NCBI GenBank assembly: GCA_000004985.1
Contig: GG738860.1
DNA from: Naegleria gruberi
Taxonomy: Eukaryota
Strand: one strand, 5' to 3'
Length of the DNA stretch: 64,000 bases
In this document: positions 767 through 62,429 of the stretch, in pieces
How positions within the stretch are numbered: position 1 is the first letter of the stretch
How the letters are laid out: each line of letters begins with the position of its first letter
Translations under genes and position numbers: made by a program
Notes under the pieces: generated by a model
Told to the model about the DNA's origin: nothing
Database searches by the model: none
The model's input: only the letters and a program-made list of their open reading frames with translations

Positions 767-897
767 GAAATTTAAAAGAACCAAGTTCATAGTGCATTAA
801 TAAAATAATTAACATTATTCAAGCAAGAACAAAGTCATACAATAATTATAGTAAATTTCCTTGTTATATAAAACTAGTTTTCATCAATAAATGTAAG

Positions 898-978
898 TTG
901 AGGTGGCCGAGTGGTTAAGGCGCCAGCCTGCTAAGTTGGTGGAGTAATCCGCGTGGGTTCGAATCCCATCCTCAACGT
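898..978 (+). tRNA. tRNA-Ser (anticodon GCT)
   Basis: Cloverleaf fits by hand. There is a perfect 7-bp acceptor stem GTTGAGG/CCTCAAC and a 3-bp D stem GCC/GGC. The anticodon stem is CCAGC/GTTGG with loop CTGCTAA. A long variable arm is typical of Ser. The T arm is GTGGG-TTCGAAT-CCCAT and the discriminator is G. A T7 run follows immediately. Confidence 0.9.
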
Positions 979-18049: not shown

Positions 18050-20470
18050 ATGGATGCCCGTGTTGCAGTAACGAAAGGTACGTTAAGAGAGAGATGAATT
18101 TAAGAATATTAAGGCCTCTGTTCATACATCATCAATATAATACCATTTTAATATCGGACTTGAATAAATAGATGATTTTGAGTATGGACAAATATTGGGT
18201 GAAGGTGCTTTTGGCCAAGTTCGTTTGTGTGTCCATAAAGCAACAGAACTTCAATACGCAGCTAAAGTATTGAAGAAGGAAAAACTTATTAAGGCCAAAC
18301 AAACGAAATATGTCAAATCAGAGAAGGAAATATTATTGGAGATGGATCATCCTAACATTTCAAAATTGTGTTATACCTTCACTGATGAAAAGAAGTTGTA
18401 CTTTGTGTTGGAACTTATTTCTGGAGGAGAATTATTTGAGTGTATTATAAAGAGCAATGTAGCAAATGATAATAAGGAATTGAAAAAAGTTGCTCAATTT
18501 TACATGGCTCAAATGTTGGAAGCACTGATCTATATTCACAGTCTTAATATTTGTCACAGAGATCTTAAACCCGAAAATCTAATGCTTACAGGATCTGGTA
18601 ATTTAAAATTGGTGGATTTTGGTATTGCAAAGAAAATTGATAGACCAGGTCCGAATACATTCTGGTAAGTTAAAATATGAAAATCTTGAAAATCTTAATT
18701 TCCAATAGTGGTACTGCTGAATATTTGGCGTAAGTTTTCTTATCAACTTGATTATATTGATGATTTCTCAATAGACCCGAAGTTGTCAGTAATAATGAAT
18801 ATGGTATTATGGTAGATTGGTGGTCTTATGGTTGTATTATTTACGAATTATTTTGTGGAAAGAGTCCTTTTTACAGCTCTAGTATGGCTGTAACTTGTCA
18901 AAAGATTGTTGATAGAGACATCTATTGGCCAAAGACAATGCCACCAGATGCCAAGGATTTAATTAATGGACTTCTCACTACAGACCCAGAAAAGAGAATT
19001 GGAGGTCCTGAATTAAGAAAGCATCCATTTTTCAAAGGAATTGATTGGAAGAATTTAAACAAGGCTGACCCACCTCTGGTTCCAGATCTTTTGTTCAATG
19101 ATGAAGATAGAGGTGTTGGTATTAAAATGTCCATGTTTGAACCTAGAGTGGATCAGGAAGACGTCATGATAAATGCTCACGTTTTCAAATCGAGATCAAG
19201 CAGTAAAGGATCAACGCAAGATGCAATCAAGAGAAGCAACTTGCTCAGAAAAATGTACCCTCAATTGTGTGCTCTCCCAGAGAGACCAAGACCAATCAAT
19301 TCAAGAATTATTCAAAACTCTGAAAATGTTCCAAAATCCAATGATAAGGTAGAAGAGGAGGAGGTAGATGATAGGGGTGATACTCAATCGGAATGTACTA
19401 GTGTCAATGAGGTCAGTAAGAAGGTCGTTATGATTCAAAATGCTGTCGGTTTGAAAACTCCTGTTATCAGGATTGCATTTGGAGAAGGTGACAAGATGGC
19501 TTGTAGTAGTAGTTTCCAAGCAAAAACATTTGGAATTGGAATTGACAGTGAATCTAATGTCATTTTCAATGAATATAAGAATTTATCAACTGTATCCACA
19601 TGTAATTACTTGGAATATTCTCCAAATGGTGAAACACTTGCCTTCGACATGCAAAGACATATTGGTTTGTTGGACTTGAAGAATCCAAAGAAAAAACCAA
19701 GACAATTGGTGGGGCATTCCCTTCCAATTACAAAGGTTTCTTGGCATCCAAAGAGCCACATGTTGGCTGCCGGAGGAAGAGATAACCTGGTGTACTTGTG
19801 GAATGTTGACAGCTCCAAACCAAAGCTTGAGGCTCAAATGGATTCACACAAATCATATATTTCAGATCTTCAATTCCATGCAAAAGATCATCTACTTGCC
19901 AGTGGAAGTGGAGATTTCAAAGTTGTATTCTACGACATTCAAAGTCAGAGAATTGTACAAAAGTACAGTTACCATGAAGATGCAATTCTTGGTGTGAGGT
20001 GGAATCCTAAATTCCCTGACATTTTTGTTTCCTGGTCTTTGGATAGAAGACTAATCTTCTCCGACCGCAGAACTTTCAAACCTATTAAGGTTCTAGCTCA
20101 TAATAGACCTGTGATTCATGCTCAATGGTCACCTGATGGATCAATGCTTGCCACCTGCAGCAAAGATTCCATTAGAATTTGGTCCTATCCATCAATTACC
20201 TCCTCTTTCGTCTACACCAATTCTGAAAGTCTTCCTGGTGAACATCTCTCTTTCGAATGTAATAGCAATTATTTGGCAGTATTGAAATGCAGAGATGATA
20301 CCTCTCCTTCAGTCATTGATACCTCTTCCTTTTCTTTTGTTTCTCCAAATCCACATCCTCAAAACTCACACAAACTCCCAATTACTAGTCTGCAATGGAG
20401 TAATAACAGACCATTCCTTGCCACTGGTTCCTATGATAAGTCTGTTATTTTGTGGGGTGTTGATGAATAA
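18050..20470 (+). CDS. AGC-type Ser/Thr protein kinase fused to C-terminal WD40 repeats; 4 exons (18050-18077, 18172-18664, 18709-18729, 18775-20470)
   Basis: Exon 1 is MDARVAVTK|GTACGT. Exon 2 is DDFEYGQILGEGAFGQV...AAKVLKK...HRDLKPENLM...DFGIAKK...NTFC|GTAAGT (44-nt intron). Exon 3 is a 21-nt micro-exon GTAEYLA|GTAAGT (45-nt intron). Exon 4 is PEVVSNNEYGIMVDWWSYGCIIYEL...HPFFKGIDW, then about 330 aa with WD40-like GH...WD repeats (LAAGGRDNLVYLWNV, LASGSGDFKVVFYDI, LATGSYDKSVILWGV). Confidence 0.8.
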
Positions 20471-28699: not shown

Positions 28700-31399
28700 T
28701 TACAAGATAACACAACCACCTCCTCCACCTCCACTGCTACTGGGTCTTGGGATGTTATTAATTTGAGTTCGGAGGTCTTGATTTTGTCTGGTTAGTTCAT
28801 CGAATTTTCTTTGAAATAATTCCTCCTGATTAGAATATTTGGAATGTATTTGAGCAACTTGGGAAGAGTATTCTTTCTTAATTTCTGTTTCTTTTTTGTC
28901 CCATTCCAATTTGAAATGGTTGAGGTCTTGTTCATGAGCTTGTTGCTGCTCTATTAAGGTATGTAAATGTTTTTCATTTTGCAGTTTCATATCTTCTAGT
29001 TCTTGTAAACGAGTAAGTTGTTCTGATTCGAGTTTGGTAATTTCAAGCCTTTGTTGTTCTTGTTCTAACATTTGTATTACCTTTTCGGATTCGTAATCCT
29101 GTAATTTGGATAAATAGTTAGCACATTCGACAGTTAAATTCTCAATATCTTGCAAAAGGTAAGTTCTAACTTGCTCTCTACCTGGACCTTTGCATTGAGC
29201 TTCGAATTGTTTCATTTGTCTTTCAGCCTCTTTCTCTAAATCTTGAACTGTGGCATCGTGGGTTAAAGCTCTAATAAAGAGTGATATATTTTGTTTCATT
29301 TCGGATCGTACTTGCTCGCACAACCTAACAGATTTGTCCATATTGTTACTTTCTATTTGGGATCTCTCTTTTTTAATTAATTCAAACAACTTGTCAGAAT
29401 ATTCTCTCAATATCTTTTCATCTTTTTCAAACATGGAGTCTCTGTTGAATATGTCAAGAATTGTTGCCCATGTTTTTGTGTGTTGTTTACGGATTTCACA
29501 AATTTCATAAATACTGTTACTGTTCAAATGTTTCTTCATTTCCCTTTCGTATAAATTTACACATTTTTCAATTGTCTTATTGTAGGTATTTTCAATTACC
29601 ATTGTAAATTTGTCCTCAATATTAGGAATCATTCCATGTGTTTTAATGGTTTTCAAATATAATAATATTAAAGTAACATAGCGAGTTCCATCTAATAAAC
29701 CTCCATTCATATTTTGTTTTGGTTTAATATTGGATGGAACGAAACTGTTAACAAAAGTAGACATTTCCTTAATGAAGTTAGCATTCAGTAAATGTTCTAC
29801 GTATGGAATATCAGGAACACAACCTGTAGCAGGTGCTTCCATATGATATGTATCAAAAGTTTCAAAAGATTCAATTACTTTTTTTCTTGAATCATTGTTG
29901 CAAACCTTATTCAAAATAAAGGAGGTAAGAGTCTTAAATTCAGCTGGTATATTCAATTTGAAATCTCTGAACAACCAAATACATCTTGGTTTCATATAAC
30001 TATTGCACTCCGTATTGTTTTGATTGGATGATTTCAATTGAATGTTTTGAGTGAATCTGGTGGTAATTTCAAGTGTCTCCATACTACTTGCTGTAGGACA
30101 AGTTGTGGTATTATAAATAAACAGAGATGATAGTAATACACTTAGAATCATAATGTGATTATCATCAGAAGCGTTAGCAGATGCTGCATCAACACCTTCA
30201 GTGTCTATCAATAAAACTTTCAATTTCTGATTGCCGTAGACCATTTCAATTGGCTCTGACCATATCCAAATTCCAAATGTTTTAGCTTCTACTGTGTGTC
30301 CTAAATGAAAGCTATCTGCAGGAACATTATCACCAACTAATCTACTAAGAGAGTATGATTTACCTTCCCTTGTTCTTCCAGCAAGTACAATTGCTCCAAT
30401 AGGCTCCTTGATATTTTTGATTATGTCAAGAGCTTGTTTCTGGAAGATTAAACCCTCTCTACGTCCGTTCTCTGATAACAGAATGTATTGACCATTGGGA
30501 GTGACCACCATATTTTTAGGAAGTAAGAGAGGAATTGCTTTACCGTGGAGTTTAACAACTTGAAAAGCAGGGTTTTGGGATGAGTTGTCTCCAGCAAATA
30601 CTAAAAGACCCCAATCGCCAAAATAATCCACGTTAACAACAATATTGTTTTCCATACAGAGGTAAATACTTTGATTTGTTGTAATATTTTCTCCAACATG
30701 ACATTGTCCATAAATGGTAAAGGTAGCATAATTTTTTTGATAATAGCCATTCTCAACTTCAAATCTATTAACATTTGGTGAAAGTACTAACTTTCTATGG
30801 ACTCTTGAAGAATAGATAAATACTGTATCTCCAGATTTAACAATACCATCTTTTGATTGATCATTAGCATTTACAAAATACAGTAGATCGTTTTCAGCAG
30901 AAAAGTGAGGGAGAGCTACTAATACATTTTGCTCCTTCAATCCCACATATAGATTGGTATTTGAGTTCATGATGGCTACTGGCTCTTTGTAAAATAAATT
31001 AGTATCTTTACACTTTTCAACAAATGGATCAAATATGCTATCTGAAACTAAATCAGGGTCTGCTTCCATTTCTTTAAGAATATCCTTTGAAGAGTTTGGT
31101 ACTTTGGAATCATTATCTATGGGTTGATCAAAGTCCATGTCAAGATAACTGAATGATTCGGCCAAATCTTCGAGACTATCATTAATAGCTTTTCTTTCTG
31201 AAGTATGAATGAAAGTGTAATATTCAATGGCGTCTTCAAGATGACCCATGCTATTTTGGATGGCTTCAAACACTAAATTCAAATCCGACAAATCCATTTC
31301 TATCATTCTCCAGAATGTTGAGGTGGCTAAATCGCAAGCTTCTTTTCCATACTCCTCAAAGTGTTTCTCGATTTTATCCAATACTGTGTGGTGATCCAT
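28700..31399 (-). CDS. guanylate-binding-protein (GBP)-like large GTPase, paralog 1: ~330-aa N-terminal extension + GBP GTPase domain + coiled coil + Gly run + CaaX (CVIL)
   Basis: AIVLAGRTREGKSYSLSRL (P-loop), EAKTFGIWIW (GBP TKGIW signature), LLIDTEGVD (G3), then ...HIMILSVLLSSLFIYNT. The C-terminus is ...RPSSSGGGGGGCVIL*, which is prenylatable. Confidence 0.8.
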   Translation of the reverse strand: MDHHTVLDKIEKHFEEYGKEACDLATSTFWRMIEMDLSDLNLVFEAIQNSMGHLEDAIEYYTFIHTSERKAINDSLEDLAESFSYLDMDFDQPIDNDSKVPNSSKDILKEMEADPDLVSDSIFDPFVEKCKDTNLFYKEPVAIMNSNTNLYVGLKEQNVLVALPHFSAENDLLYFVNANDQSKDGIVKSGDTVFIYSSRVHRKLVLSPNVNRFEVENGYYQKNYATFTIYGQCHVGENITTNQSIYLCMENNIVVNVDYFGDWGLLVFAGDNSSQNPAFQVVKLHGKAIPLLLPKNMVVTPNGQYILLSENGRREGLIFQKQALDIIKNIKEPIGAIVLAGRTREGKSYSLSRLVGDNVPADSFHLGHTVEAKTFGIWIWSEPIEMVYGNQKLKVLLIDTEGVDAASANASDDNHIMILSVLLSSLFIYNTTTCPTASSMETLEITTRFTQNIQLKSSNQNNTECNSYMKPRCIWLFRDFKLNIPAEFKTLTSFILNKVCNNDSRKKVIESFETFDTYHMEAPATGCVPDIPYVEHLLNANFIKEMSTFVNSFVPSNIKPKQNMNGGLLDGTRYVTLILLYLKTIKTHGMIPNIEDKFTMVIENTYNKTIEKCVNLYEREMKKHLNSNSIYEICEIRKQHTKTWATILDIFNRDSMFEKDEKILREYSDKLFELIKKERSQIESNNMDKSVRLCEQVRSEMKQNISLFIRALTHDATVQDLEKEAERQMKQFEAQCKGPGREQVRTYLLQDIENLTVECANYLSKLQDYESEKVIQMLEQEQQRLEITKLESEQLTRLQELEDMKLQNEKHLHTLIEQQQAHEQDLNHFKLEWDKKETEIKKEYSSQVAQIHSKYSNQEELFQRKFDELTRQNQDLRTQINNIPRPSSSGGGGGGCVIL

Positions 31400-34323: not shown

Positions 34324-36759
34324 ATGCAATCTGCTAAACCTCTCATATTATTCAAAAGCTCTGTTAATGGAGAATTAAATTCATCTGATTGTGGTGAACC
34401 TTTTCTGGTTCAAGAAACAGTCAATGAATTACTACAATTGACCGATTTACTCAACAAACCAGTCAAGGTAATTGGAGTATGTGGTCCAAAGAGGGCTGCT
34501 AAAACTTCTCTTGCCAATTATCTTGCTCAATCTGTATCATTTGAAGTTGGACATTCAATTGAGTCCAAAACAAAGGGTATTTGGTTGTTTGTAGTTGATA
34601 AACAAGATCATTCCTTAATCATTTTGGATTCTGAGGGTTTTGATGAAGCCTCAACTGCCCAAGATCAACTCTTGTTCATTATCCTGTACTTTTTGTGTTC
34701 CCTCCTTGTTTTCAATACCAGTCATGTGCCAACAAGACAAAATGTTCAAGATTTACAATTTCTAGCCGAATTTAAATCCAAGCTACTTGTATCTGAAGCT
34801 TCAACCCATAACAAATCTGTTCATCCAACCTTCTTGAATTCATTTGGTCCAAACTTTTTATGGTTGATTAGGGATAAATTCTTGAATATTCCCAACGAAT
34901 TTCAAGACATGGAAGATTTCATGTTGAGAGTAGTCCTGGCAAAATCAAATGATGGAAAGGATCATTTGAGAGAAAACATTCTCACCATCTTCAATAGAGT
35001 CTTCTTTGATTTTTTACCTGTACCTGGAGAGCCATCATTCCAGTCAAAATTGGAACATGTTACAATGAATGTTATTTTGGCTAATGTTCCATTAAAAAAA
35101 TTGGTCAATCCTGAAGATATTGGCGATAGAGAAAGTGTTACTTTGGAAACATTCCTTAAATTGGTTGAACTTGTTATTCATCAAATGACTCGAACTCTTA
35201 ACAAGATTCCAGTAATTGACAATATTTTTCATACCATCACCTCCAATAAGGAAATTTACAATTTAAAACGTGCCGTTCAAGTATACGTTGATCACATGAG
35301 CAGGGAACTTGATGATATTGACCCAGTTGACTATGACATATTCACTGAAATAGATAAGCAAGCTGTTGCTAAGGCAACCAAAACCTATTTTGAAGGAATT
35401 CCATCTTCAACTGCAGATTCGAATAGATTACTTTCTGATCTCATGCAAAAGAAGAAGAGTTTCATTGACGACCAAAATGAAAAATCCAAAACATATTGTA
35501 CCTCTCTCATCAAACAATTGTACTCGAAAATGGTTGCTCCCCAAGTAAAACAGTTAATGAATGTCAGAGGTGATATTTCCATGTTGCTTGACACTATTGA
35601 TAAATTCAAGAAGGAATACCATTCGAAAGCTAAAGGAAACATGGCAGTCTCTGTTTTGAATGGCTATTATAATCATCATATTACTAAGGATTTGAATAAT
35701 TTGAGTTCAATAAGAGAGTATGAAGAGAATGTGAAGAATATTAAGGAAGAATTTTCTCACAACTTGGTTCAGTTGAAGGAAGCTGAAAAATCTCTTGTCA
35801 CATTTGAGAACAATATTTCTCAAAATACAAACTATCAACAAATGCTAGAAATGCAAACAAAACTGCAATCTGAACTCTTTAAAGAAGTGATGATTGCTCA
35901 GAGGGAATCACAAGCTAATACTCTAGTCTCCATTGATATGCTCTCAAAGAGTATGCATGACTCTCAGAGACAAGCTCTTAGCATGTATTCTGCAATGCAA
36001 CAATCTCAGCAACAAGCACAAACTCAACAATTAGCTCTCGTTCTAGAGCATAATAGAATTGCAAGTGAGCAACTTAATCAAGCAATGGAAAAAACTACTC
36101 AAGCAGTAATTCAGTATAATGCCAATAGAGAAGATGATTCTTTTTTGGGAAAGGTTGGAAAGATTGGTTTAATAGTTGGTTTAGGTGCTTTGGCACCTGC
36201 ATTGGGTGCCATTCCACATGTTGGATCTGTCCTCTCTGCAACAGCTACAGGAATGAGTGCAGTTATGGGAAAGCAATTGCTCGGACAAGAATATGACCCA
36301 AGACTAATTCAAACCAATACTACTCCTACTCCTCCAAAGGTTAGTCATAGTCCATCAGTCAATCGAGACTCCTTATTATCTCAATTCACAACCAATGCTC
36401 TCTCACAACAAGTGCATCCACAAAATCAACAAGTAACCAACAGCCATCAACCAAGAGCTGTTGTTAGCCAGCTGCCAAGAAAGAATCCTATTGTGCAACC
36501 TCAAAAATCTTCAATCACAGAGTCCACAAAATATGAATTGGGTGGAGAGTTTAAACAAGTTGGCCTCAATGGATCTTATTCCAATACTGTTACAAAAGAT
36601 ATGTTTCCTTATGGCTGTCAATGGGGATGTGGACGTGAAAATGTTTGTTCAAAGCCAGGCCATTCATGTGGAAGACCATCATGCAATGAGGAAAGAAATA
36701 AGAAATCCTATTTCAAAGGCACACTTGGTGTAATGTCAACAACAAGAAACAAGTTGTGA
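34324..36759 (+). CDS. GBP-like large GTPase, paralog 3 (divergent: degenerate P-loop, Gly-rich hydrophobic segment, Cys-rich C-terminus, no CaaX)
   Basis: VKVIGVCGPKRAAKTSLANYL (P-loop with AKT in place of GKS), ESKTKGIWLF, LIILDSEGFD, LFIILYFLCSLLVFNTS. Downstream is a helical domain, then GKVGKIGLIVGLGALAPALGAIPHVGSVLSATATGMSAVMG (glycine-zipper/TM-like) and a Cys-rich tail YGCQWGCGRENVCSKPGHSCGRPSCNEE. Confidence 0.7.
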   Translation: MQSAKPLILFKSSVNGELNSSDCGEPFLVQETVNELLQLTDLLNKPVKVIGVCGPKRAAKTSLANYLAQSVSFEVGHSIESKTKGIWLFVVDKQDHSLIILDSEGFDEASTAQDQLLFIILYFLCSLLVFNTSHVPTRQNVQDLQFLAEFKSKLLVSEASTHNKSVHPTFLNSFGPNFLWLIRDKFLNIPNEFQDMEDFMLRVVLAKSNDGKDHLRENILTIFNRVFFDFLPVPGEPSFQSKLEHVTMNVILANVPLKKLVNPEDIGDRESVTLETFLKLVELVIHQMTRTLNKIPVIDNIFHTITSNKEIYNLKRAVQVYVDHMSRELDDIDPVDYDIFTEIDKQAVAKATKTYFEGIPSSTADSNRLLSDLMQKKKSFIDDQNEKSKTYCTSLIKQLYSKMVAPQVKQLMNVRGDISMLLDTIDKFKKEYHSKAKGNMAVSVLNGYYNHHITKDLNNLSSIREYEENVKNIKEEFSHNLVQLKEAEKSLVTFENNISQNTNYQQMLEMQTKLQSELFKEVMIAQRESQANTLVSIDMLSKSMHDSQRQALSMYSAMQQSQQQAQTQQLALVLEHNRIASEQLNQAMEKTTQAVIQYNANREDDSFLGKVGKIGLIVGLGALAPALGAIPHVGSVLSATATGMSAVMGKQLLGQEYDPRLIQTNTTPTPPKVSHSPSVNRDSLLSQFTTNALSQQVHPQNQQVTNSHQPRAVVSQLPRKNPIVQPQKSSITESTKYELGGEFKQVGLNGSYSNTVTKDMFPYGCQWGCGRENVCSKPGHSCGRPSCNEERNKKSYFKGTLGVMSTTRNKL

Positions 36760-56023: not shown

Positions 56024-58735
56024 ATGAAAAGAAAACCAATCACGTCATCCTCTGCCAGCAAGAAGGCGAAAACTACCAATACAGAACAGCAACCAATAAT
56101 CATTTCATCACAAGATTCGAATAATGAAGAATCGAACAATGATCAATATTATGATCCGGATACTATCTTTCTATTAGATTCCAATGGTGAGTTTGTGATA
56201 ATCCCCGATGACCAAGAACCAATTTCATCAGAAGAAACAGAAGAAACTAATTTATTAGTTTCATCATCGCAATCACCACCTTTTGATTATTCGATTTATA
56301 CTAGTATCGATCAATTTCTAATAATTCCCACACACAACTTGATAAAGGAAATTCCACACGAAATTATCGCAAATTGGATGTTCTACATGGACAAACAAAC
56401 TCTTTTCAATTTCATTAGAGTTTCTCGAGAAGTTTACAATATATTTGATGAAATTTATGCAGAGAGTGTGGAAAGATTGAGATTGGAAATTTTAAATAAC
56501 AAGAGAAAGAGTAGTGATTTGAATCGATTATTGGATTTGTTTTCGAATGAAAGTCGAGAGAGAAGTGGTGAGAAAGTTATGCTGACCTATGATGACTATT
56601 TCAGAATGAGAAGTTTTACACCGTGGCCTTTGAGTTATTTTCATGATAGGACTCGGTTTGAGAGTGTTGTGAATGAAAATGATCCTCAAATTAAAGTTAT
56701 TAATGAAAAGGCAGATGAACAGATGGCACGTCTATTAGAAATGAATAATGAACAAATGAACAAAGAAACTGCTCAATATGAAAAGGTATTGCCATATGGA
56801 GTTTTTCCAAGAAAAGACATTTACTATTTGACTTTTAATCAATTGGTAAAGAGAAAGTGTGTCAAAAATCTGAAAGAAGACTTGTACATGTATACAGATC
56901 AAGCATATAAAATTGAAAGAGTGATAACAAGTGATTTATATGCAAATGAGGAGAAGAAATATAGTGTGGATTATCATACATATGTGGATAAACACAGTCA
57001 TCCAACAACTGTATATATTGAGAGAATTGTTCGGTTTTTCAAACATCCAAATGAAATGACATTCTCTGACTTTGATAATAGATTCAAGAATAATTTTCTT
57101 AGTGAACTAGCAAGAATATTAGTATATGATTGTGTATTTGAATATAACAAATCAACCAAGACAAGAGAAAGATTTGTTGTATCTGGTGGATCACTGCTTC
57201 ACACTCTTACTGGATGTGGCTGTCAAGATATTGACATTTTTATTATCAATAATCAAGAACCCGATGAAATTGTCAATCAAGCAATCAAACAGGTTTTATT
57301 GAAATTTGAAGAAAAAACCTCAAACTTTACCTATAATATAATGGGTTCAAAAACTACTATTAATATTTGTGAAGAAAGACCTAAAATGAGTATTGCAAAT
57401 GGTTATAGAGTTGAGACCAATCAGAATATTCAGATTGTTCTTTTGAGATATGATTCCATTGAAGAGTTATTACTATTCTTTGATTTGGATTGCTGTAAAT
57501 TGGCATTTGATGGAATTAGAGTTTACACAGTATTGGAATGTTTGAGATCTTTAAAATATAAGATTAACTTTCTTCCAAAACGGACAGGAAATACAGAAAT
57601 CAACAGAGCTAGGGCTTTAAAATACGGTTTTAGAGGTTTTTTTACTTTCACACTCGATACAGATCATCCTCTCTCTCATGCCATGCATTGTGACTTTGTT
57701 GTTGAGAAGCTCAGAAAAAAGATAACAACAGAATACAAAGAGACCCGAATTGATGATATTTACAATGGTAGACGAAATCCTACGACTCAGTTCTTTGTGC
57801 AACCAAAAGATTTTAGCTTTGCAGCACCTATGAAGGAATCGTCAGATCTCGATGAATCAAATTACCTCTATCCATTGATATTGAGAAATGTGGATTATCA
57901 TTTTGTTGATTTGTGTAAATCTATTGGACTCGGTGCTGCATTGTGGAAATTGAAAAAAAACATTTCGAGAGAACGTTCTTGTTACATATTTGATTTCCTT
58001 CTCGATGGAGATACTAAAAGCAAGGCCCTATTCACTTCTGAATTGAAATTAGAAAATTCTGAAAGAAAGGGTGGTTCTGAAATGTTAGAAAAGCTAATTT
58101 CATTAGATGGCTACACATTCTTAGATAGACCTTCTGAACTTTTCAAAAACCTGCAACAAGATTATAATCTCGTCAAAAACAAGTATTCATACTCTCACCT
58201 AGTTCAGAAATATAATATTGTGAATTGTGCCAAATGTTCCAACTATATTTATTCAACACAAATTGCATCTCAATTGAGGTTAAAGAAGAGACAACATGAC
58301 TCGTCCATTGAAATTCCAAAATTTGACACAATTAACGAAAATAATTTCAATCCAGAAATTCATTTCTGTTGTGATTCCTGTTTAAGGAAGGTGAATGGCA
58401 TGATAAAGTTTAGAGCTTTTATCCAATCAACAAGTTATGGAGTTTCTGGAGCTGAAAAAGGAATTGTAACTCTGTTAGTGGAACAAGATCAGAATTCAGG
58501 AATTTCAAAGAGGAAAATCTTTATATATTTGGAAGGGGCTTATGGACTGGAAGAATTGCAAATTGCATTTTATTCCTTACTGAATTATAGGAAATATATT
58601 GAGTACATTTCAGTGGATGATGAAATTCATGTAAAATTGGCAAACACAACAATTGTTTCGTCTGACTATGAAGTTCTCTATCCTCCAAAAACTTACCCTC
58701 CAAAATTTGATTGGATGTTCAATGGATCAATGTGA
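56024..58735 (+). CDS. 903-aa protein with F-box-like motif, a Pol-beta-type nucleotidyltransferase core motif and C-terminal Cx2C...Cx2C pairs
   Basis: Uninterrupted ORF. LIIPTHNLIKEIPHEIIANWMFYMDKQTLFNFIRVSREVYNIF is F-box-like. FVVSGGSLLHTLTGCGCQDIDIFI fits h[GS]S-x11-DhD (cGAS/OAS/Cid1-type NTase signature). A candidate third acidic residue sits about 83 aa later (LLFFDLDCC). Cys pairs are CAKC...CCDSC. Confidence 0.55.
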   Translation: MKRKPITSSSASKKAKTTNTEQQPIIISSQDSNNEESNNDQYYDPDTIFLLDSNGEFVIIPDDQEPISSEETEETNLLVSSSQSPPFDYSIYTSIDQFLIIPTHNLIKEIPHEIIANWMFYMDKQTLFNFIRVSREVYNIFDEIYAESVERLRLEILNNKRKSSDLNRLLDLFSNESRERSGEKVMLTYDDYFRMRSFTPWPLSYFHDRTRFESVVNENDPQIKVINEKADEQMARLLEMNNEQMNKETAQYEKVLPYGVFPRKDIYYLTFNQLVKRKCVKNLKEDLYMYTDQAYKIERVITSDLYANEEKKYSVDYHTYVDKHSHPTTVYIERIVRFFKHPNEMTFSDFDNRFKNNFLSELARILVYDCVFEYNKSTKTRERFVVSGGSLLHTLTGCGCQDIDIFIINNQEPDEIVNQAIKQVLLKFEEKTSNFTYNIMGSKTTINICEERPKMSIANGYRVETNQNIQIVLLRYDSIEELLLFFDLDCCKLAFDGIRVYTVLECLRSLKYKINFLPKRTGNTEINRARALKYGFRGFFTFTLDTDHPLSHAMHCDFVVEKLRKKITTEYKETRIDDIYNGRRNPTTQFFVQPKDFSFAAPMKESSDLDESNYLYPLILRNVDYHFVDLCKSIGLGAALWKLKKNISRERSCYIFDFLLDGDTKSKALFTSELKLENSERKGGSEMLEKLISLDGYTFLDRPSELFKNLQQDYNLVKNKYSYSHLVQKYNIVNCAKCSNYIYSTQIASQLRLKKRQHDSSIEIPKFDTINENNFNPEIHFCCDSCLRKVNGMIKFRAFIQSTSYGVSGAEKGIVTLLVEQDQNSGISKRKIFIYLEGAYGLEELQIAFYSLLNYRKYIEYISVDDEIHVKLANTTIVSSDYEVLYPPKTYPPKFDWMFNGSM

Positions 58736-59532: not shown

Positions 59533-61245
59533 ATGGTACTACATGATGCTTCCCCAACAACAACGAGTAGTGCGGTTGACCAACAAATTAAACAATACAG
59601 GTTTAAAATAGAGGCTGTTTTTGACCACAAGGAGGCGAGAGAAATATTTAGGGAATATATGAAGAAGGATTGTCTCAATGAAGGTGAGTTTACTTTTACC
59701 TTTCGAATAATAATTATTGTGTTATTGTGATGGTTTCGAATTATCACCACCAATCAAAATAATCAATTAATTTCAAACACAACTCTCAATTAAAAATTTG
59801 AATAAGAACCCTTGTTATTTTACGAAAGTGTTGAAAAATACTTGAACACCCGATTAGATAAGAATCGATTAGAATTGGCTGCTGATATCACTGAACATTT
59901 CATCACAGTTAGCCAACATGAATTAAACCTCTCCATGTCTATTCGAAATGATATCCTAACCCGATGGGAACAAATCGAAGAAAGAAACAAGAATGTCATT
60001 GATGATGATTTAATTGCCTGTCCAATTGATTTATTCAGCAGAGCTCAGGATGTAATTTTCATCGAGATGAAACAAGATAATTTTTCAAGATTTGTCGATT
60101 CTGATATTTTCAAAAAGTTTCTAATAAGAGAATTGAAGAAGAATGATCATATTTTGGAATCTTTGGGCACGTGTAAATTCAATTCAAGAACTGGCTCTTT
60201 GGGAAGTTTATCATCTGAGGATTTGATGAATAATTTGACACCAGTTTCATCTTCCATTTCATCTTCACCATTACATGCAATTTCACATTCACAACCAAAT
60301 AATTCTAGTTTTTCTGGGAATGTGAATTTAACTCCAAGAAGTTCTCAAGATAGTGAGAGTGATTCACTCGATGAGAAAATTGCAACTTTCTATGAGAAAC
60401 AAAATGATTCGAATGAAAGTTTACTCTTGCCAATTATTGATGATATGAGTCCATATATAACTCCAAAAGATTATGATTTGGGAATGAAACTTGTAAATTC
60501 ATTGAATGATTCGAATATGTGGAAAACTATTGATGAAAAAGTTGGACTCAAGACACTTGTCAGTAATCCTGTTTTTAGTTTTTCTCCAAGAAAGAGTGAA
60601 AGTGGGAAGATAATTGTCTGCAATTCTGGAATTCTCACTGGTAAACCAAGAGATTGGTTGAATTTGTTATTCTCTGATTCTATCAATAAGATGATTCATG
60701 AAAAGATGAAGAAGAGATTCCAAGTTGACTATATCAAAATTAATCCAAAGAATGGAGCTCACTACCCAAACACAATAGTATACACTGAAGCTCAATTTCC
60801 ATTTCCATTGACTAATAGAGATTTCATCTTTTGTAGAAGTGTAATTCCAGATCTTTACAATGAAACTACTGGAGAATATGACAGATATGTCTTTATTCAA
60901 AAACCAACTCAACATCACGAATATCCAGCCAGAAACTCACCAATCAGAGCACTCCACTACATTTTCTACATTGTTGAAAAGAAGACTCAATCCAGTGTTA
61001 AATATTCAGTATTCGAAACTGGAGATCTCTCCGGCAAAATTCCACCAAAGATTGTTTCAAGCTTTTTCAAGACTATTGCTAATGCCATGCACAAGAAAGT
61101 CATCAAAGCATGTGAAAAGATCTATAACGAAGAAATCGTTTCCAAAGATGCTGATGGCGCCCTATCAACCCTCACTGAAATGCTCAAATATTTGGAACAT
61201 GAAAGAGCTAACAAGTCAAACTCAACAATAGCTGAAAAACATTAA
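59533..61245 (+). CDS. RGS domain + START (Bet v1-like lipid-binding) domain protein, 2 exons (59533-59683, 59807-61245)
   Basis: Exon 1 is ...YRFKIEAVFDHKEAREIFREYMKKDCLNE|GTGAGT, with a 123-nt intron. Exon 2 is EPLLFYESVEKYLNT...IDLFSRAQDVIFIEMKQDNFSRFVDSDIFKKFL (RGS box C-terminal signature). The C-terminal ~200 aa are RDFIFCRSV...IRALHYIFYIVEKKTQSSVKYSVFETGDLSGKIPPKIVSSFFKT (START-like). Confidence 0.65.
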
Positions 61246-61394
61246 TACTTGTGTAAAATATATTCATCATCATCATGGATTTCAATATCAGAATTTTTGA
61301 GAGTTTCTGATATTTTTGTAAATTCAATAAATTTTTGAAAACAGATTTGAAAACTTTACAAAATTTCTTAGCTGAAAAATCAATAATTAAAAAA

Positions 61395-62429
61395 ATGCAA
61401 ACAAAATTAAATGAATTACCGTTAGAATTGATAAGAGAAGTTCAATGTTACTCTAGTCGTGTTGAATTGATATTTTTGTGGAGTTTTACTTGTCGGAATT
61501 GGAGGCGAATGGTTTGTGAATTGATTTGGGAAGATTACAATGAAGTGATTAAGAAATTTTCCAATAACAGATACGAAATGAATTTCAATGATGATTATGA
61601 AAACTTTCTCTATTCGAAAGAAGGAAGAAAGTTTACTAAATATTTAATTAGAAAGCATGTTTACGAAATGGCTTGTCTCCTATCCGAAGAAGAAGAAATG
61701 ATTGCACAACATTTTGATTCAGTTTCGGAACGATGGATTGATGAACAATTGAAATATTTGAAAAATGTTTTTAATCAATTCTCAGATTTGAAATTAGAAA
61801 AACAAAGTTCAATTGAACTATCCAGATCAACACTATTCGACAATGCTCTTTCCTTCATAGGCTCCTTCTTCTTGCCAAATAATTCTTCAAATGATGTGAA
61901 GGATTTCGATTTCCTTTCAAAAATCCTATTGGAAGGAGAAAGATCGAGTGGAAAGTCATCGTTCCTCTATTGTGCAATGAATAATGGTGAAATTATTCAA
62001 AATTCAATGCCTCCAATTGCCTGTTTTGCTCGGAAAATATTAACAATTGGTCAAGAAAGAGTTAAGATTGAAGTGTGGGAAAGTGGTGGAGAAAGATATC
62101 GGCCTCTGATTGCTGCCAATTATCGAAGAGTTGAATTTATTTTGATATTTGTGGATCCTTTCAAATGGAATTCGAAACAGTCCACTGAATTATTGAGCAA
62201 AATCAAGGAAGATATTGAGAAATATTCATCGAAAAAGATTGAGGTTATCTTTATTACAACAAGGAAAGACATTGAACAAGAGAAACGAAACCTTTCTAAT
62301 GAAAAAGCAGATGAATATGCTTTTGATAATTATTTTGGAGCTCTACATTTCAATATTACAAATAATCAAGCTGAGGAACCAAAAAGAATCATTTGGTATT
62401 GCACATTACTCAAGTATTTACTTTCGTAA
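61395..62429 (+). CDS. F-box-like motif + divergent Ras/Rab-like small GTPase domain (catalytic Gln absent)
   Basis: LNELPLELIREVQCYSSRVELIFLWSFTCRNWRRMV is F-box-like. GERSSGKSSFL is G1, VWESGGERYR is G3 (DTAGQE with the Q missing), and ITTRKD is G4 (NKxD variant). Confidence 0.55.
   Translation: MQTKLNELPLELIREVQCYSSRVELIFLWSFTCRNWRRMVCELIWEDYNEVIKKFSNNRYEMNFNDDYENFLYSKEGRKFTKYLIRKHVYEMACLLSEEEEMIAQHFDSVSERWIDEQLKYLKNVFNQFSDLKLEKQSSIELSRSTLFDNALSFIGSFFLPNNSSNDVKDFDFLSKILLEGERSSGKSSFLYCAMNNGEIIQNSMPPIACFARKILTIGQERVKIEVWESGGERYRPLIAANYRRVEFILIFVDPFKWNSKQSTELLSKIKEDIEKYSSKKIEVIFITTRKDIEQEKRNLSNEKADEYAFDNYFGALHFNITNNQAEEPKRIIWYCTLLKYLLS

Follow-up and report, generated by a model that had tools for sequence, protein, structure and literature searches.

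A single gene on the plus strand of the window, the 64,000-nt stretch of Naegleria gruberi DNA analyzed here, encodes a protein that joins an RGS domain to a START domain and belongs to a heterolobosean family. We regard this assignment as very nearly certain. The gene and the parts of its product are arranged as follows.

59533-61245, plus strand: gene of two exons, with ATG at 59533 and TAA at 61243-61245
59533-59683, plus strand: exon 1, codons 1-50 plus base 1 of codon 51, encoding the first RGS helices
59684-59806, plus strand: phase 1 intron of 123 nt, GT..AG (GTGAGT...AATAAG), interrupting the RGS box
59807-61245, plus strand: exon 2, encoding the remainder of RGS, then linker, START and C-terminal helix, and ending in TAA
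59611-60120 (intron included), plus strand: RGS domain, residues 27-155, Pfam PF00615
60151-60420, plus strand: serine-rich low-complexity linker, residues 166-255
60421-61122, plus strand: START domain with a helix-grip fold, residues 256-489
61159-61239, plus strand: extra C-terminal helix, residues 502-528, motif D-DG-L-TL, beyond the canonical START helix

Joining the two exons yields an in-frame product of 529 aa. The ATG at 59533 is the first one downstream of an in-frame stop, and the MVLH with which the product begins lines up with MVLL and MVNQ in Naegleria orthologues. Removal of the intron restores both the frame and the conserved RGS motif ...CLNEEPLLFYE..., and the GC content of the intron is 25%, compared with 34% for the coding sequence and 32.8% for the whole window. 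The intron call is also supported by the orthologue from N. lovaniensis, in which the same codon is interrupted in the same phase (...KDCLNE/gt...ag/EPF..., slashes marking the splice sites). Exon 2 is a single unbroken ORF that contains the linker and the entire C-terminal domain in addition to RGS residues 52-155. The fusion is therefore independent of the intron call, since this one ORF holds most of RGS together with START. The sequence-only reading had proposed that the RGS box spans the 123-nt intron and that both halves belong to one gene, and both proposals stand: the Pfam match runs over residues 27-155, and the single ORF and the intron common to the N. lovaniensis orthologue place the halves together. 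In a six-frame scan, the family RGS profile matched both exon pieces, with an E value of 1.6e-15 in the frame of exon 1. The gene at the N. lovaniensis locus (L001; PYSW02000049.1, 6001-7867) spans ~226 nt more than its coding sequence, and the first intron, common to both genes, makes up ~166 nt of this excess. This difference implies a second small intron in N. lovaniensis, which is absent from the window gene.

The RGS box read from the letters is borne out by Pfam PF00615, which the N-terminal domain matches over positions 3-117 of the 117 in the profile, with E=3.7e-16 and a score of 60 bits where the cutoff is 23.9. The ending that had been called diagnostic of RGS is present as well: FSRAQDVIFIEMKQDNFSRFVDSDIFKKFL, at residues 127-156, aligns with RGS10 and RGS4 over their last helices. 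Sequence matches to this domain in the PDB were RGS10, RGS17 and RGS4, and the best RGS sequence matches overall were R4-type small RGS proteins (RGS4, RGS10, RGS17 and RGS8). In an AlphaFold2 model of the exon 2 product, the RGS part is helical with a pLDDT of 53-83, values that come from a shallow alignment and a construct excluding the first 51 residues.

We compared the domain with RGS4. In this comparison, the RGS4 Gα contacts N128, D163 and R167 are matched here by N91, D141 and R145, and another Gα contact, N88, corresponds to P52. The equivalents of N91, D141 and R145 are invariant across seven family members, and the proline is likewise invariant in the family. The window protein thus keeps the three contacts found in R4-type proteins but differs from them in several respects: identity is 27%, a 15-residue insertion lies between helices, proline replaces N88, a START domain is attached, and the amphipathic N-terminal membrane helix is lacking. 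The residues retained make GAP competence plausible, but the proline at the N88 position means that it is not guaranteed, and there are RGS domains that serve solely as scaffolds.

Between the two domains lies the serine-rich linker that the sequence-only reading had described; it contains 27% Ser and 42% Ser, Thr and Asn combined over residues 166-255. Linker length varies among orthologues, and pLDDT falls below 50 in the model of the exon 2 product; we take this stretch to be disordered. Identity to orthologues is 57-67% in RGS and 31-52% in START, compared with 19-38% in the linker, where the alignments have many gaps. By these alignments, conservation is much stronger in either domain than in the sequence that connects them. 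The protein has no transmembrane segment or lipid anchor (maximum Kyte-Doolittle mean over 19 residues, 1.08). We considered anchoring in the membrane and rejected it, given that the protein lacks both a hydrophobic segment and an N-terminal Gly.

Taken as a single sequence, the C-terminal domain scores only marginally as START: Pfam PF01852 matches residues 366-487 at E=7.8e-5 and 22.6 bits, 0.6 above the cutoff of 22. Only three of seven close family members have a Pfam START match at E<=1. Profile and structural evidence settled the identity of this domain, which had been proposed as START-like. The canonical START motifs PFP-x-x-NRD(F/Y), (I/V)R and D-x-x-G-x-IP could be aligned, and PCTP and STARD10 were the only sequence matches to the domain in the PDB, whether the query was the single sequence or a profile. 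With a six-sequence domain profile, PCTP and STARD10 were returned at E=5.6e-5 and 9e-4. When this six-sequence profile was searched against 1.84 billion representatives, it retrieved 126 proteins, 123 of them new; Pfam START was found at E<=0.01 in 98 of the 123 (best E=5.9e-45), and 47 of the 123 also carry Pfam RGS. A protein search with the 35-sequence START profile returned one protein.

We then modeled residues 256-529 with AlphaFold2, using the 35-sequence alignment of the domain. The model had a mean pLDDT of 92.8 and a pTM of 0.90; it replaced an earlier run on a seven-sequence alignment, which had a pLDDT of 41. STARD10 was the top structural match, and the START structures matched in the PDB were STARD10, CERT, PCTP and STARD4, covering only ~175-215 of the 274 modeled residues. 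The model agrees with the helix-grip fold of START, which is ~210 aa long, has an N-terminal helix, an antiparallel sheet of nine strands and a long helix at the C-terminus, and differs from the shorter Bet v1/SRPBCC folds. Judged by its motifs, profile matches and predicted fold, the domain is START proper and not merely Bet v1-like. It might be argued that the fusion is an artefact in which neighboring genes were misjoined, or that the resemblance to START arose by chance, and the marginal single-sequence score would fit such an account. We find it barely credible and consider it effectively refuted already.

Beyond the canonical fold, the model contains a further helix at model residues 247-273, in a block with a pLDDT of 80-98. 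The motif of this helix is kept in orthologues (DHDGGLATLKEY), and its 'TL' persists in the consensus of the 35-sequence family. Alignment and model together indicate that the helix is a family-specific addition to START.

Proteins with RGS N-terminal to START are not confined to this locus. Local profile scans identified ~50 cluster representatives with this arrangement. All named carriers are Heterolobosea (N. gruberi, N. fowleri, N. lovaniensis, Willaertia magna and Acrasis kona), and the remaining representatives are metagenome proteins. N. gruberi has at least five RGS-START paralogues among the representatives, and N. lovaniensis has two among the nearest relatives. The window protein is 48-50% identical, at 95-96% coverage, to N. 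lovaniensis C9374_011673 (P0001) and the N. fowleri orthologue (P0002), and 39-41% identical, at 92% coverage, to an N. gruberi 'regulator of G-protein signaling 8-like protein' (P0005). All three align with it from end to end, with colinear RGS, linker, START and C-terminal helix. W. magna ABK040_010692 (P0009) has the same RGS-START layout; only the START profile retrieved it, and the local RGS profile confirmed its RGS domain. What differs among these heterolobosean relatives is the sequence and length of the linker. The exact window protein was absent from the databases searched, in which its best match was 50% identical, and no synteny was detected with the N. lovaniensis locus.

Family entries in the databases are often labeled only 'RGS domain-containing' or 'hypothetical', and the precomputed Pfam annotation of the six closest homologues lists only RGS. 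The START half is missing from these annotations because its score lies at or below the Pfam threshold. The high-confidence model shows a full START domain behind labels that mention only RGS.

The sequence-only reading regarded the combination of RGS and START as undescribed. This does not hold, as many heterolobosean RGS-START proteins are public, and a passage of a 2014 survey (de Mendoza et al. 2014, PMC3971589) includes START in the set of domains that divergent taxa combine with RGS. The same survey gives N. gruberi 229 RGS genes and a lineage-specific expansion of Gα. Both modules are textbook domains, and their combination appears in public proteomes and in the survey; we therefore do not propose a new kind of system. 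As judged from the sequence comparisons, the window gene is a previously unlisted orthologue. Also new, on the strength of the profiles and the model, is the finding that an entire START domain and an added helix make up the under-annotated C-terminal half of the family. Our literature search, which was incomplete, found no functional study of any RGS-START member and no papers on RGS-START with Naegleria or Heterolobosea as their topic.

With slightly better than even confidence, we propose that the product is a soluble RGS-START protein of 529 aa that couples GAP action on Gα to a lipid. The RGS domain would bind activated Gα and accelerate GTP hydrolysis, while the START domain would bind a membrane lipid. 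Whether RGS encounters Gα, or in what location, would then depend on lipid binding. If the RGS-Gα encounter is set by lipid in this way, termination of the G-protein signal would be coupled to the lipid state of the membrane. GAP activity, lipid binding, the class of ligand and the coupling of RGS to START are each inferred here. In keeping with the earlier suggestion of G-protein signaling under the control of a lipid ligand, we consider such control a plausible and reasonable hypothesis. The family would lend itself directly to testing whether lipid controls the inactivation of Gα, in an organism that has so large a complement of RGS genes, and the pathogen N. fowleri, in the same genus, has an orthologue of the window gene.

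A similar logic of GAP plus START is found in the animal proteins DLC1, DLC2 and DLC3 (STARD12, STARD13 and STARD8). The ligand of the START domains in the DLC family was long unclear. DLC1-3 use a RhoGAP domain on Rho-family GTPases and have an N-terminal SAM domain, whereas the window protein has an RGS domain directed at heterotrimeric Gα, and Pfam found no RhoGAP or SAM match in it at E<=1. As whole proteins, the two are analogous and not homologous.

With respect to the lipid itself, the window domain aligns with the phospholipid-binding START subgroup of STARD10 and PCTP (STARD2) at the NRDF, xIR and D-x-x-G-x-IP motifs. It differs from them in an identity of only 17-19%, in the extra C-terminal helix, and in being attached to an RGS domain, as STARD10 and PCTP are single-domain proteins without RGS. 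Trp101 of the phosphocholine cage of PCTP aligns with Thr/Ala here, and the ligand is not predictable for this reason. A sterol, which the sequence-only reading had allowed for, is not favored, as the START domains nearest in sequence are phospholipid binders and the structural scores do not discriminate. We consider a phospholipid or sphingolipid more likely than a sterol.

The roles of the two domains could instead be reversed. START would be the effector and RGS the address, so that a lipid-transfer or lipid-extracting protein would be recruited by a GAP-dead or weak RGS domain to membranes bearing activated Gα, much as RGS serves as a binding module in GRK2, axin and sorting nexins. The proline found at the N88 position in all members would suit this arrangement, as would the PDB START domains matched, which are mostly lipid transfer proteins (STARD10, CERT, PCTP and STARD4). 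A passage of PMC3971589 also describes RGS domains without GAP activity that serve as scaffolds. We nevertheless think this arrangement unlikely, because the residues most critical for GAP activity, those equivalent to RGS4 N128, D163 and R167, are invariant, and because the Pfam scan found no PH, FFAT or other second membrane-targeting motif of the sort typical of transfer proteins. Less probable again is an account in which START no longer binds lipid and has become a protein-interaction or autoinhibitory module for RGS, possibly relieved by phosphorylation of the linker. The headgroup-cage residue of PCTP that is not conserved, the conserved C-terminal helix particular to the RGS-START family and the abundance of potential phosphosites in the linker would all agree with such a role. 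We retain lipid-coupled GAP action on Gα as the preferred reading.

Several relatives extend the RGS-START core with a C-terminal BLUF blue-light sensor, which Pfam detects at E values of 1e-22 to 1e-27. This set includes P0020, P0030 and P0104 (A. kona KAL0486363.1), together with P0021, P0061 and P0068 (W. magna KAL9658754.1), and several of its members are metagenome proteins. The A. kona protein KAL0486363.1 is named 'photoactivated adenylate cyclase subunit alpha', and the only domains found in it were RGS, START and BLUF. Further elaborations of the core occur in P0086 (N. lovaniensis C9374_007590) and P0079 (metagenome): ankyrin repeats followed by RGS and START, and RGS with a START-like region and a cytidine/deoxycytidylate-deaminase domain. 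In the deaminase-bearing relative, the START-like region was matched only by the family START profile. The literature searched contained no paper that connects BLUF with RGS and Naegleria.

By analogy of domain layout, the fungal RGS-LOV photoreceptors, such as BcLOV4, are the nearest precedent for the RGS-START-BLUF proteins, as both fuse RGS to a sensory module. Binding of BcLOV4 as a whole to membrane phospholipids is regulated (PMC8993538). The protein senses light through LOV and binds lipid through a polybasic helix, with no START pocket, whereas the window protein has no photosensor. More broadly, RGS-START proteins could form a heterolobosean class in which the lipid bound by START allosterically gates the GAP activity of RGS, with blue-light gating added in the BLUF relatives. 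We regard this extension as doubtful. If it were true, the class would amount to a switch, controlled by ligand and light, that turns heterotrimeric G proteins off and has no characterized counterpart in animals, fungi or plants, and compact Gα inhibitors of an optogenetic or lipid-sensing kind might be derived from it. The BLUF-bearing relatives may in any case be of interest for optogenetics.

Elsewhere in the window, we noted the following features.

897-977, plus strand: tRNA-Ser(GCT), near the start of the window
18195-20470, plus strand: ORF in which WD40 repeats follow the C-terminal end of a protein-kinase domain
28700-31399, minus strand: guanylate-binding protein (GBP) paralogue with GBP N- and C-terminal domains
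34324-36759, plus strand: second GBP paralogue, oriented divergently to the first, with the same domains
56024-58735, plus strand: upstream single-exon ORF of 903 aa
58990-59063, minus strand: tRNA-Arg(TCT), in the 800-nt gap directly upstream of the RGS-START gene
61335-62429, plus strand: next gene downstream, Pfam Ras at E=2.5e-13 over residues 176-312 of the ATG-started product

Tandem paralogues of the RGS-START gene were looked for and rejected, as the 64-kb window contains only one RGS and one START signal. For the 903-aa ORF upstream, Pfam gave no match and public collections contained no exact record; by eye, the ORF contains an F-box-like 'IPHEIIANWMFYMDKQTLFNF' stretch. An F-box-like 'LPLELIREV...' was likewise noted by eye N-terminal to the Ras domain of the downstream gene, with no Pfam score. 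The N-terminal part of the kinase in the kinase-WD40 gene probably lies in the adjacent ORF at 18195-18668, across an intron. Guanylate-binding proteins are a family of dynamin-like GTPases best known from animal innate immunity. In line with an origin in the Naegleria clade of Heterolobosea, the window also encodes a methionyl-tRNA synthetase that is 74% identical to that of N. fowleri, 70% to that of N. lovaniensis and 62% to that of W. magna.
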